From a virus (taxonomy: Duplodnaviria; Heunggongvirae; Uroviricota; Caudoviricetes): 41,474 nt of DNA. Position 1 is the first letter of the stretch, and each line of letters starts with the position of its first letter. The notes under the pieces are model-generated. The model did no database searches and was not told the origin of the DNA. It saw nothing but the letters and a program-made list of their open reading frames with translations. The stretch spans positions 1-41,474 of the IMG/VR virus record IMGVR_UViG_2734482774_000012, one strand, 5' to 3'. Positions 12,585 to 41,403 of this stretch are shown piece by piece. A program made the translations under genes and the position numbers.

Positions 12585-12881
12585 ATGACACAAGCAAGTT
12601 ACAGCAAGCCAACACAGCGAGAAATTGATCGCGCAGAAACAGATTTACTCATCAACCTGTCAACGCTTACCCAGCGCGGTCTGGCAAAGATGATTGGCTG
12701 TCATGAATCGAAGATAAGCAGAACGGACTGGAGATTTATTGCTTCGGTCTTGTGTGCTTTCGGAATGGCATCAGACATCAGTCCGATTAGCAGGGCTTTT
12801 AAGTATGCATTGGATGAAATCACAAAGAAAAAATCCCCGGCTGCCACCGAGGATTTTAAGCAAATTGATATGCAATTCTGA
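12585..12881 (+). CDS. CII-like transcriptional activator (98 aa)
   Basis: Position after cro/nutR; C-terminus KKKSPAATEDFKQIDMQF parallels lambda CII NKKRPAATERSEQIQMEF; rest divergent. Confidence 0.65.
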   Translation: MTQASYSKPTQREIDRAETDLLINLSTLTQRGLAKMIGCHESKISRTDWRFIASVLCAFGMASDISPISRAFKYALDEITKKKSPAATEDFKQIDMQF

Positions 12882-12913
12882 GGGAATTACTGGATCAATC
12901 CACAGGAGTAATT

Positions 12914-13883: not shown

Positions 13884-15256
13884 GACAGGATATCGAAGCG
13901 AGCGTTATCGGTGGCCTGCTGATTGGTGGATTAACACCAACCGCCAGTGACGTTCTGGCAACGCTTGAGCCGGAAGCGTTTTCAATTCCGCTCTACCGGA
14001 AAGCCTTCGAGGTTATCCGCAAGCAGGCGCGAAACAGAAACCTAATCGACGCGCTGATGGTTGCCGAGGCGTGCGGAGAGGAGCATTTCACGTCAATCCT
14101 GATGACCAGCAAAAACTGCCCGAGTGCCGCAAACCTGAAGGGATATGCCGGAATGGTCGCGGATAACTATCACCGCCGTCTGGTGCTGGAAATCATGGAT
14201 GAAATGCGTGAACCAATTCAGAGCGGAACCATCGACGCATCGAGTCAGGCGATGGATGAACTTGTAAAGCGTCTTTCAGCCATCAGAAAGCCCCGTGACG
14301 AGGTTAAACCTGTACGGTTAGGGGAAATCATCACTGACTACACTGACACGCTTGACAGGCGTCTGAGGAACGGAGAAGAGTCAGATACCCTGAAGACCGG
14401 AATCGAAGAACTTGATGTCATCACCGGAGGGATGAACTCGGAAGACCTGGTGATTATCGCTGCTCGTCCGGGTATGGGGAAAACCGAGCTGGCGCTGAAG
14501 ATTGCCGAAGGCGTTGCAAGCCGCGTTATTCCTGGTTCTGACGTCCGGCGCGGAGTGTTGATTTTCTCGATGGAAATGAGCGCATTGCAGATCGCAGAGC
14601 GAAGCATTGCCAACGCCGGGAGGATGTCGGTTAGCGTACTGCGAAATCCTGCATCGATGGATGACGAAGGCTGGGCGCGTGTTGCTAACGGCATGAGTCA
14701 GCTTGCAGATTTGGATGTATGGGTAGTCGATGCCTCGCGGTTATCGGTCGAAGAAATACGCTCAATCGCAGAACGGCACAAACAGGAAAATCCAAACCTC
14801 TCACTCATCATGGTGGATTATCTTGGCCTGATTGAGAAGCCGAAAGCAGACCGCAACGACCTCGCAATTGCTCACATCTCCGGAAGCCTGAAGGCGATGG
14901 CGAAAGACCTGAAAACGCCTGTTATCTCCCTGAGTCAGCTTTCGCGCGATGTTGAGAAGCGACCAAACAAACGCCCGACAAACGCAGATTTGCGTGATTC
15001 AGGAAGCATTGAACAGGACGCAGACTCAATCATCATGCTCTATCGGGAAGCGGTATATGACGAGAACAGTAGCGCCGCGCCATTTGCTGAAATCATCGTG
15101 ACGAAAAACCGTTTTGGCTCACTTGGTACGGTTTATCAGCGGTTCTGCAACGGACACTTTGTTGCATGTGACCAGGATGAAGCCAGACAGATTTGCACAG
15201 CATCAAATGCACCTGCTGCACGTGGCAGACGATATGCACAAGGGGCTGACGTATGA
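13880..15256 (+). CDS. DnaB-family replicative helicase (P22 gene 12-like, 458 aa)
   Basis: Walker [16 protein letters not shown], DnaB-type N-terminal domain and C-terminal RecA-like core motifs; ATGA overlap with the O-like gene. Confidence 0.9.
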
Positions 15257-15281
15257 CCATCTACATCACTGAGCTTGTAAC

Positions 15282-15313
15282 AGGCCTGCTGGTAATCGCA
15301 GGCCTTTTTATTT
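15282..15313 (+). terminator. Intrinsic terminator (lambda tR2-like)
   Basis: AGGCCTGC-TGGTAATC-GCAGGCCT hairpin followed by TTTTTATTT, just after the helicase gene. Confidence 0.6.
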
Positions 15314-19290: not shown

Positions 19291-19365
19291 GGGTCAGTCG
19301 TATAAAGGTCATTACGGAAGGCTGTTAACCTTCTTATCGTGGTTCGAGTCCACGCTGTCCCGCCA
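19291..19365 (+). tRNA. Phage-encoded tRNA-like gene (manual fold suggests anticodon GUU, Asn)
   Basis: 75 nt ending CCA; perfect anticodon stem GAAGG/CCTTC with loop CTGTTAA; T-arm CGTGG-TTCGAGT-CCACG; acceptor stem 6/7 pairs. Isotype unverified. Confidence 0.45.
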
Positions 19366-19370
19366 AACAT

Positions 19371-19446
19371 GCTGGTTTAGCTCCAATGGTAGAGCGGTCG
19401 CCTTGTAAGCGAATGGGTAGCGGTTCAAGTCCGTTAACCAGCACCA
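19371..19446 (+). tRNA. Phage-encoded tRNA-like gene (manual fold suggests anticodon UGU, Thr)
   Basis: 76 nt; perfect 7-bp acceptor stem GCTGGTT/AACCAGC, D-arm GCTC-CAATGGTA-GAGC, anticodon loop CTTGTAA, T-loop TTCAAGT, 3' ACCA. Confidence 0.55.
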
Positions 19447-19533
19447 TAACTGAGCCGTAGCCACTGGCCGTCCTGAATTTATCAGTGATAGTTACGCTGC
19501 GGCCTTCTACACATGACCTTCGTGAAAGCGGGT

Positions 19534-19568
19534 GGCAGGAGGTCGCGCTAACAACCTCCTGCCGTTTT
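19534..19568 (+). other. Stable hairpin upstream of the lysis genes
   Basis: GGCAGGAGGT / ACCTCCTGCC 10-bp stem with 10-nt loop followed by GTTTTGCCC; role unknown (possible late-leader terminator or processing site). Confidence 0.3.
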
Positions 19569-36595: not shown

Positions 36596-37081
36596 TTATC
36601 TAATGTTGCTGCTACTGTTGCATGTGACGGTGTTTCCAAATCCTGAATTGCAGTTTGTATATGTGTCAACGCGTGTTGGGTAAGGTTGAGTTATAACAGG
36701 CTGGCGCGCTTTTTGCTCGATCGCTTGCATTGTGTTTACAGCCTGATAATTCAATAAAGCCTGCTGGAATGCTTGGCTTTGCGCTATTTGTTGGGCTTGT
36801 TCTTGGCTTTGTAATTGAACATAAAGATTCTGAAGCTCAAGTCTTGCCTGTGCGTCACTTATCTTGCCTTCATCGACACCTTGCCCGAGCATCTTCGCAG
36901 CAAGGACATACAGCTTAGGTGTTGGTGCTGATGCCATGCGTGAGTCGTTCTTCACGCTGGCATCAAGGCAATTAGCCATATCACTAAGCTTTGGATAGCG
37001 TTGTTCGCAACTTGCTTGGTAGTCACTTACTTTTGCGCATCCAGCCAGCAGAAGCGGGATAATTAATAGTGATTTTTTCAT
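36596..37081 (-). CDS. Predicted outer-membrane lipoprotein (161 aa), unrecognised
   Basis: Signal peptide with canonical lipobox LLAGC, +2 residue Ala; Q-rich helical middle; Cys-containing C-terminus; last gene of the mnt-side operon. Confidence 0.65.
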   Translation of the reverse strand: MKKSLLIIPLLLAGCAKVSDYQASCEQRYPKLSDMANCLDASVKNDSRMASAPTPKLYVLAAKMLGQGVDEGKISDAQARLELQNLYVQLQSQEQAQQIAQSQAFQQALLNYQAVNTMQAIEQKARQPVITQPYPTRVDTYTNCNSGFGNTVTCNSSSNIR

Positions 37082-37106
37082 AAAGTTATTTATAAAATCC
37101 TTTCTA

Positions 37107-37421
37107 TTATTTATCAGAAGTTAGATTGTAATAATTGGTATAAGCTGAAATTGACTTCTGGCATGCTTCAAGAAACTCCTGTGGATTCATTCCAAGTCTT
37201 GCTTGCTCTGTGGTCAGAAAACGCTGTAAGAACTCATCTCCGCCAGGCATTTTTGTTGATTCTTGAAATGTTGCCATTTGTTTGATTGTGCCGCACATGC
37301 CAGCAAATTTCGAAGTTATCATGAGTTCTTGCAGGCCTTTAAGATCGCCATTATCTGATTTTTGTTTGGCGCAAACTATTGTAGAGAAGAACAATATTAA
37401 CAAAATAGCGATGCGTTTCAT
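37107..37421 (-). CDS. Predicted exported protein (104 aa), unrecognised
   Basis: N-terminal signal peptide MKRIAILLILFFSTIVCA; ATG overlaps the mnt stop (ATGA). Confidence 0.55.
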   Translation of the reverse strand: MKRIAILLILFFSTIVCAKQKSDNGDLKGLQELMITSKFAGMCGTIKQMATFQESTKMPGGDEFLQRFLTTEQARLGMNPQEFLEACQKSISAYTNYYNLTSDK

Positions 37422-37669
37422 TCTTCACCGTTGCCATGCATACATTTTAACTTCTCAACCTCATGCTCAAGCTCTATCAACCGCGATGCTATAGTTGCAA
37501 TATCTAGTGCTTGAATATGTTTATTTTTTTCAGTCCATGCCTCAAGTGCTGCTACCATCTCAGCATTTAATGAACGAGAATTAGCCTCAGCCAGCTCAAT
37601 AAGACGTTCCTTTATCTCTACAGGAAGCCTCAGATTCACTTGAGGGTTTTTGTACTTACGATCAGACAT
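37418..37669 (-). CDS. mnt: Mnt-like ribbon-helix-helix repressor
   Basis: N-terminal NLRLPVEIKERLIELAEANSRSLNAEMVAALE is an Arc/Mnt/MetJ-type RHH motif; position and orientation match P22 mnt relative to arc-ant. Confidence 0.7.
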   Translation of the reverse strand: MSDRKYKNPQVNLRLPVEIKERLIELAEANSRSLNAEMVAALEAWTEKNKHIQALDIATIASRLIELEHEVEKLKCMHGNGEE

Positions 37670-37773
37670 CGGCGCATCCTGAATAATTATTTACCACAGG
37701 ATATGTAGGTATCTATTGACTATCAATGCGTACCTAAATACTATGTATGCGTACCACATACAAAGGAGCAAAA

Positions 37774-37920
37774 ATGAAAGTTAAGACATTAAGGATGCCA
37801 GAATGGCTGGAAAAGGCTTTGGAGCAGTCCGCGAAAAAGGATGATCGGTCGTTCAGTAATGAGGTATTGAGGAGACTAAAGGAGTCAGTAGCTAAGGATG
37901 GAATTGTTTGTCCAGAATGA
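37774..37920 (+). CDS. arc: Arc-like ribbon-helix-helix repressor (48 aa)
   Basis: Manually translated MKVKTLRMPEWLEKALEQSAKKDDRSFSNEVLRRLKESV...; RHH pattern; AAAGGAG RBS; immediately upstream of ant. Confidence 0.6.
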   Translation: MKVKTLRMPEWLEKALEQSAKKDDRSFSNEVLRRLKESVAKDGIVCPE

Positions 37921-37986
37921 GTAAAGCCCAAGCTATTGCGAGTAGCTCGGGCTTAAATCGCCAGTAAATTTTGAGGAAAAACTGAC

Positions 37987-38910
37987 ATGAAAAGTATAGC
38001 AACAGCAGTATCTACTATCAACGTGCCATTCCACGGCGCAGAGCTTTATGTCGTCAATCACAACGGTGAGCCGTACACCCCAATGAAACCTATCGTTGAG
38101 GGAATGGGGCTAGACTGGAAATCTCAACATAAGAAGATTTCTCAACGCTTCTCGAAGGGTATGGTGGAAATCACCATACCTTCTGCCGGTGGGGTGCAAG
38201 CCATGATTTGTATGGCTTTACGAAAATTGGCAGCTTGGTTGAACAGCATCAGTCCTAACAAAGTCCGCCCTGAAATCCGCGACAAGGTAATCCAGTATCA
38301 GGAAGAGTGTGACGATGTGCTCTACGAATACTGGACTAAAGGCTATGTGGTTAACCCGCGCAAAGCTAAAAAGGCGTTGCCTGGTAAAATCACCACTGAA
38401 CAGCAGGAAGCTATTAAACAGCTCGTCATGAGTCGCGGTCAGTCTCTGCCAAAAGAAAAACAGGCGAAGGCGATGATCACCATGTGGTCGTCACTGAAAT
38501 CCCATTTTGGATGTTCGTACAAAGAAATTAGTGAGGAGCAGTTTACCGAAGCACTGTCACTTGCAGCTCGAGTTCCACTTGAAGGTGAGTTCATCGGCAA
38601 ACAAGAGAAGAAAACCAACGAGCTTTCTGCAAAAGAAGCAAACAGCCTTGTATGGTTATGGGATTATGCCAACCGCTCACAGGCATTATTCCGCGAACTG
38701 TATCCGGCATTAAAACAAATTCAATCGAACTATTCCGGCAGATGCTACGACTACGGTCATGAGTTCTCGTATGTTATCGGAATGGCGAGGGACGTTTTAA
38801 TCAATCACACACGAGATGTTGATATTAATGAGCCAGACGGACCAACGAATCTTTCCGCATGGATGAGACTTAAGAATAAAGAATTACCTCCTTCAGTACA
38901 TAACTACTGA
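37987..38910 (+). CDS. ant: Antirepressor Ant (307 aa)
   Basis: Position after mnt/arc; size and N-terminal domain typical of P22-type antirepressors (recollection). Confidence 0.75.
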   Translation: MKSIATAVSTINVPFHGAELYVVNHNGEPYTPMKPIVEGMGLDWKSQHKKISQRFSKGMVEITIPSAGGVQAMICMALRKLAAWLNSISPNKVRPEIRDKVIQYQEECDDVLYEYWTKGYVVNPRKAKKALPGKITTEQQEAIKQLVMSRGQSLPKEKQAKAMITMWSSLKSHFGCSYKEISEEQFTEALSLAARVPLEGEFIGKQEKKTNELSAKEANSLVWLWDYANRSQALFRELYPALKQIQSNYSGRCYDYGHEFSYVIGMARDVLINHTRDVDINEPDGPTNLSAWMRLKNKELPPSVHNY

Positions 38911-41002: not shown

Positions 41003-41403
41003 TGCAACAGGAATGGAATCTAGTCGATGCACTGTGGTATATAATGTGAAAATTAGTGCAAAAAAAACTCAATCATTACATGTTAATATTTGTCTTATGC
41101 TAATGCCTAATTTGCTATTAGGAGGTAACTACAATATAAATCCAGCTATGAAATAATTACATCATCTCCAGAAATCACCTGAAAAAACCACTAGACAGAA
41201 CCAAGACACACAAAGCTTTGCACTGGATTGCAAGGCTTTGTGCTCTTCTATGCTGAGTGGCTACATGTTTGAAGATCGTTGTGCCGTATTTGTGACATAC
41301 ACATGACAACATCATGCATCAACTTTCTGTTTGTGCCATCAACTATTGCTTGGTGAATGCGGTTAATGCTTGCTAAAACAGATAGTTATGATTGGTGCTA
41401 CAG

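Follow-up and report, generated by a model that had tools for sequence, protein, structure and literature searches.

A hairpin between arc and ant in a P22-like Escherichia coli prophage as the probable terminator stem-loop of a sar homologue

What does the imperfect hairpin between the arc and ant homologues of the viral record IMGVR_UViG_2734482774_000012 represent? In P22-like phages, sar is a small antisense RNA that blocks translation of the antirepressor gene ant. The genes arc, ant and sar commonly occur together in these phages (PMC2629481, PMC12111858), and the sources on P22 sar cited in PMC2629481 include Liao et al. 1987, Wu et al. 1987 and Schaefer & McClure 1997. Here, we analysed the whole record as one stretch of 41,474 nucleotides, hereafter the window. 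Our reading, to which we assign a probability of roughly 0.88, is that the hairpin corresponds to the terminator, stem-loop II, in a homologue of P22 sar carried by an E. coli P22-like prophage. Elements of this kind are ordinary and already understood, and no new mechanism is implied.

The hairpin, its flanking genes and promoters

The inverted repeat AAGCCCAAGCT-ATTGCGAGT-AGCTCGGGCTT can be read directly in the window, where it lies in the context ...CCAGAATGAGTA-AAGCCCAAGCTA-TTGCGAG-TAGCTCGGGCTT-AAATCGCCAGTAAATTTTGAGGAAAAACTGAC-ATG.... The hairpin proper occupies 37924-37954, with 12-bp arms at 37924-37935 and 37943-37954 around a 7-nt loop at 37936-37942, and its single stem mismatch is an A·C on the plus strand that corresponds to a G·U wobble on the minus strand. 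An earlier note had described an imperfect hairpin in the arc-ant region at 37921-37986. The hairpin is real, and the range corresponds almost exactly to the whole sar-like RNA, or arc-ant spacer, but it is wider than the hairpin itself.

The window contains 14 hairpins of the same grade (arms no shorter than 11 nt, one mismatch at most and a loop of 3-12), compared with 3.1 +/- 2.1 after dinucleotide shuffling. Taken alone, the hairpin is therefore not particularly improbable, and its stem is weak proof; what decides the matter is position, homology and covariation. Across the window, hairpins of this grade were enriched about 4.5-fold over the shuffles. The window-wide scan also returned further strong hairpins at 15279-15308, 12830-12857, 19533-19564 and 41209-41242, the first of which (AACAGGCCTGC...GCAGGCCTTTT) resembles an intrinsic terminator.

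The arc and ant identities that had been given to the flanking genes were borne out by Pfam. On the plus strand, the 48-aa arc-like gene at 37774..37920 matched Arc (PF03869) with 25.1 bits (cut-off 20.4), and the predicted sar extends with its 3′ tail into the stop codon of this gene. The ant antirepressor gene at 37987..38910, also on the plus strand and encoding 307 aa, matched P22_AR_N with 152 bits and P22_AR_C with 104 bits. Its ribosome-binding site and start codon, as read from the letters, span 37973..37989 on the same strand (GAGG at 37973-37976, start codon at 37987-37989); the predicted sar covers the bases up to 37986, with the start codon just beyond, and the GAGG/GGAG-10 nt-ATG arrangement of ant is common to the window and P22. 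The mnt-like repressor gene of immI (83 aa, 37418..37669, minus strand; Pfam Arc PF03869, 40.2 bits) has the same position as in P22, SEN22 and CUS-3, and the mnt, arc and ant homologues sit between a gene for a gp16-type ejection protein and the tailspike gene.

A Psar-like sigma-70 promoter was identified on the minus strand at 37993..38021, inside ant codons 3-12. It consists of TTGATA at 38021-38016, a 17-nt spacer and TATACT at 37998-37993, matching the consensus at 10 of 12 positions, with an extended -10 TG at 38001-38000. The start predicted from this promoter is at about 37986, the base adjoining the ant ATG. Judged by sequence evidence only, the element thus has a predicted convergent sigma-70 promoter of its own inside the start of ant, as a sar RNA should. 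Since the promoter overlaps codons of ant, its conservation cannot be told apart from that of the Ant N-terminus. On the plus strand, a Pant-like promoter at 37716..37744 (TTGACT-17-TACTAT) is predicted to drive arc-ant and converges on Psar, and the divergent, overlapping layout of Pant and Pmnt is the same as in the P22 annotation.

The mnt-arc spacer further contains two imperfect palindromes, one at 37702-37740 (18-nt arms, 78% complementary), which overlaps the Pant- and Pmnt-like promoters, and one at 37741-37765, just downstream of both. Both are candidate operators for the Arc and Mnt proteins of this phage, since their layout parallels that of the annotated P22 Arc/Mnt operators. Downstream of mnt, the minus strand of 36596-37421 carries two ORFs at the place of P22 orf59a and sieA, neither of which had a match in our Pfam search. 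The product of 104 aa has an N-terminus that resembles a signal peptide, and its ORF overlaps the stop of mnt by 4 nt; the product of 161 aa contains a lipoprotein box (LLAGC). The pair may represent morons or genes for superinfection exclusion.

The predicted antisense RNA compared with P22 sar and SEN22

The predicted sar-like antisense RNA is about 67-70 nt long and lies on the minus strand at 37917..37986, with its 5′ end at the G of 37986 and an approximate 3′ end at 37917-37920. The Rfam sar model RF00262 matched the minus strand at 37986-37920 over model positions 1-68 of 68, with 29.3 bits and E = 0.0015. This is below the gathering score of 43 bits, and a gathering-level Rfam scan of the whole window returned three tRNAs only and no sar. 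With the same model, P22 scored 97.8, CUS-3 84.6 and SEN22 32.4 bits. The score of the window element is below the threshold because the inner half and the loop of stem II diverge, and intermediates among the homologues form a chain that links the sar types; we therefore assign the element to the sar family, as a diverged member. A custom covariance model, R1, matched 37986-37917 with 75.2 bits, a score that is not independent, as the window is in the R1 seed. With filters off, an R1 scan of the complete window gave the sar site and a weak echo of it on the opposite strand (24.2 bits, E = 0.005); the sole other match, at 12824-12903, was not significant (14.1 bits, E = 0.53).

When folded, the 69-nt minus-strand RNA formed two hairpins as in P22 sar, at -25.9 kcal/mol (z = -6.1), and 0 of 200 shuffles folded as well. 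For a 106-nt stretch, 37905-38010, z was -3.4 on the minus strand and -1.1 on the plus strand. Stem-loop I is predicted at 37960..37986 (minus strand) with a 6-bp stem, GUCAGU/ACUGGC, and a 15-nt loop containing CCUC, which is complementary to the Shine-Dalgarno sequence of ant. Stem-loop II, at 37924..37954 on the same strand, is the presumed intrinsic terminator of sar, with a 12-bp stem that includes one G·U and six G-C pairs, and the loop CUCGCAA. By fold and covariation, a length of about 68-70 nt with two stem-loops is consistent with the sar family, the 3′ end being a predicted one.

As a terminator, stem II is good, while the minus-strand tail UUUACUCAUU is weak, with fewer than 5 T among 8 bases, and a consensus terminator scan flagged the hairpin on neither strand. 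The annotated and experimentally characterised sar terminator of P22 has a similarly weak tail, CAACUUUAC. Stem-loop II with UUUACUCAUU is the sole candidate terminator. Small-RNA sequencing published in 2026 lists P22 sar as 104 nt (PMC13397905 Table 2), a species that starts 4 nt upstream of the annotated 70-nt RNA and ends about 30 nt past it (PMC13397905). The longer species hints at read-through of the weak terminator tail in P22, and the same could hold for the element in the window.

We then compared the locus with the P22 annotation, in which sar runs 15090→15021, its terminator 15058→15021 and Psar 15125→15097, with the ant start at 15091 and the arc end at 15022. Measured from the ant ATG and from the stop of arc, all of these landmarks have the same places in the window: sar begins at the base immediately preceding the ant ATG, its promoter spans +6 to +34 of ant, and it ends at the arc stop. 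Like the window element, P22 sar (RF00262) is intercistronic between arc and ant, is encoded on the strand opposite ant with its 5′ end adjoining the ant ATG, has about 70 nt and two stem-loops, the first with an anti-SD in its loop, and extends to the arc stop codon; its Psar likewise falls in ant codons 3-12, with the same extended -10, TTGCTATACT. In an alignment of the window with P22, SEN22 and CUS-3, TTGCTATACT..TCATGT and the outer stem AAGCCC/GGGCTT were invariant. A relation to the P22 sar region, the comparison proposed in the earlier note, is thus evident from the full-length RF00262 alignment and the shared TTGCTATACT..TCATGT.

The two RNAs also differ. While the outer part of stem II (AAGCCC/GGGCUU) is conserved between them, the inner half and loop read CGAGCUA-CUCGCAA-UAGCUUG in the window and CUGACUGU-UACC-GCAGUUGG in P22. 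The stem has 12 bp and the loop 7 nt in the window, compared with 14 bp and 4 nt in P22. Stem I differs by three one-sided changes, all of which preserve pairing. The -35 of the window, TTGATA, is closer to consensus than that of P22, and the 48-aa Arc of the window is of a sequence type unlike P22 Arc.

The closest named relative is SEN22 (NC_028696), whose region is 87.7% identical to the window and has the same type of stem II with the same loop, CUCGCAA. Pair seven of stem II (37930 with 37948) is G·U in the window and U·G in SEN22, and a few base differences also occur in stem I and the tail. In the -35 region and the Ant N-terminus, SEN22 is of the P22 type, while the window is of the CUS-3 type. 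There is no sar feature annotated in the SEN22 record.

Comparable cis-antisense RNAs of phages, each limiting a regulator of the lysis-lysogeny decision, are lambda OOP (against cII), P22 sas and the anti-23/anti-Q RNA. Like sar, they are short, constitutively promoted, terminated by a hairpin and overlap their mRNA target (PMC5415839, PMC3134472, PMC13397905), but their sequences are unrelated to the window element and their targets are different. OOP acts at the 3′ end of cII via RNase III and not by occluding a ribosome-binding site (PMC3134472).

Homologues, covariation and alternative readings

Homologues were retrieved from viral contigs with the pattern TTGCTATACTNNTCATGT, which yielded 120 loci; the pattern contains the -10 and the start codon, so that conservation of those bases in the retrieved set is circular. 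Among these loci there were about 70 unique sar-like sequences, with at least six types of stem I and a similar number of stem-II types. The sar type of the window was found on three contigs, two of which are identical over 147 nt. When each homologue was folded individually, the same two-hairpin shape was obtained. We built R1 from nine seed sequences including the window, and aligned 66 matches, 57 of them distinct, at a cmsearch threshold of E <= 0.001; a threshold of E <= 0.01 had drawn in seven opposite-strand echoes.

In the 57 distinct homologues, 98.0% of the pair cells were standard pairs and 11 of the 20 pairs showed compensatory, both-side changes, values that come from an alignment fitted to the structure with the window in the seed. 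None of 500 shuffles reached the observed values, and sliding the partners by 1-3 columns reduced pairing to 26-46%. Helix 1 was 95.6% paired, with double changes in five of its six pairs, and helix 2 was 99% paired, with double changes in six of 14. MAFFT followed by RNAalifold on 37 homologues recovered stem II only, with stem I out of register. The single-sequence folds and the stem II of MAFFT/RNAalifold agree with the covariance-model result.

The strand was then examined through the wobble pairs. G·U accounted for 257 of 1136 pair cells (22.6%), each of which becomes A·C on the complementary strand, and pairing accordingly amounted to 98.0% on the sar strand compared with 75.7% on the ant-mRNA strand. 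The hairpin itself has this asymmetry too. With pairing down to about 76% on the opposite strand, the comparison suggests that selection has acted on the minus-strand RNA. Together with the Rfam alignment, the P22 layout, the two-hairpin fold and the covariation, the pairing on the sar strand supports the suggestion of the earlier note that the hairpin is a sar-like terminator.

These data also bear on three other explanations of the hairpin. The structure might instead, or in addition, act on the plus strand within the arc-ant mRNA. There it could attenuate or terminate transcription between arc and ant, or else stabilise the 3′ end of an arc-only message or serve in its processing, and so set the Arc:Ant ratio. 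The plus-strand stem still forms, as 6 + 7 bp around the A·C mismatch, directly after the arc stop codon, and the 24.2-bit echo of R1 is a weak trace on this strand. However, the hairpin is followed there by AAAUCGCC with no U-tract, the plus strand folds no better than shuffles (z = -1.1), and its pairing across the homologues falls to 75.7% through the 22.6% of G·U cells that become A·C. On these three grounds we rejected a plus-strand terminator or attenuator, and we regard a plus-strand role as a whole as very unlikely. As the G·U pairs of the sar strand are A·C mismatches on the plus strand, selection appears to act on the minus-strand RNA. A chance palindrome, or a protein-binding site at the DNA level unrelated to RNA, is the least probable of the three, to the point of being negligible: about three hairpins of the same grade are expected in 41 kb, but position and homology match sar exactly, and compensatory changes, above all G·U pairs confined to one strand, mark an RNA structure rather than a DNA palindrome.

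A decayed or silent relic of sar, neither transcribed nor functional in this prophage, would fit the score below the Rfam gathering threshold and the weak terminator tail. It fits poorly with a promoter that is nearer to consensus than that of P22 (TTGATA, TG, TATACT), with two intact stems in which the differences from P22 and SEN22 preserve pairing, and with a target, ant, that is intact in both domains. Moreover, independent contigs share the 147-nt region without a difference, and 34 E. coli genomes contain near-identical copies. We consider such decay very unlikely, and retain the reading of the hairpin as stem-loop II of a sar homologue.

At pairs 8 and 9 of stem II (about 37931-37932 with 37946-37947), adjacent wobbles, U·G followed by G·U, were kept in 45-51 of the 57 homologues. 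Wobbles of this kind systematically weaken the complementary hairpin in the ant mRNA. As a speculation, they could be relevant to antisense-target pairing or to avoiding RNase III.

Sar-like two-hairpin elements with a TATACT -10 were also observed upstream of ant in arc-ant phages outside Lederbergvirus, namely in vB_SosS_Oslo (L126:326-393, R1 33.4 bits) and TL-2011b (L125:332-403, R1 25.8 bits). In the Stx phage P13374, a single case of ant without arc upstream, the sequence (L127) gave no R1 match, and neither the hairpins nor a TATACT -10 were seen in it.

Proposed action and prophage context

From the sequence, the following course of events can be proposed. RNA polymerase would start at the Psar-like promoter in the first ant codons and transcribe leftward, from the base adjoining the ant ATG across the arc-ant spacer, ending past the hairpin at the arc stop. 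The predicted product would be an RNA of about 70 nt with two stem-loops, in which the hairpin would end transcription and probably stabilise the small RNA. By sequence, this RNA is perfectly complementary to the arc-ant spacer, including the ant Shine-Dalgarno, up to the base before the ant start; complementarity to the ant ribosome-binding site, as in sar, holds by construction for a cis-antisense RNA. By analogy with P22, sar would pair with arc-ant mRNA that comes from Pant or from late-operon read-through, and the pairing would occlude the ribosome-binding site and limit antirepressor synthesis, which would favour the establishment and maintenance of lysogeny (PMC7968456, PMC13397905).

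A further, tentative idea is that the sar family consists of interchangeable 'specificity modules', with the type of the window and SEN22 as a separate antisense class, and that selection for or against Ant cross-repression maintains the diversity. The stem-I and stem-II/loop types appear to be freely recombined, in P22-like as well as non-P22-like phages (Oslo, TL-2011b). We hold this idea to be doubtful; if it were true, it would add an RNA-level layer to immI heteroimmunity between co-resident or superinfecting phages.

The immI region (37400-38100) was at least 80% covered in 34 complete E. coli genomes, with a best match of 99.6% identity; PGAP has annotated no sar in the E. coli prophage that matches at this identity. 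The analysis confirms, at the level of gene and element content, an apparently intact Mnt/Arc/sar/Ant circuit in this E. coli prophage. The value of the finding lies mainly in annotation, as this sar subtype occurs in at least 34 complete E. coli genomes and SEN22 and is sub-threshold in Rfam. Standard annotation misses the window/SEN22 subtype, and the RefSeq records inspected carried no sar feature. A rebuilt model of the RF00262 type that includes the subtype would make immI antisense regulation recognisable in more prophages.

In a search of a phage collection, the window was not present as such. A tRNA-Thr gene (anticodon CGT) lies at 1369-1444, near the left end of the window; given this gene and the near-identical matches in E. 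coli chromosomes, the window looks like a P22-like prophage with a chromosomal flank. By analogy with the integration of P22, this tRNA-Thr(CGT) is probably a thrW-type gene beside which the prophage is integrated. Inside the prophage, at 19291-19446, we observed two adjacent tRNA genes, tRNA-Asn(GTT) and tRNA-Thr(TGT). Such an internal pair is unusual for classical P22 and recalls the tRNA clusters of other lambdoid phages.
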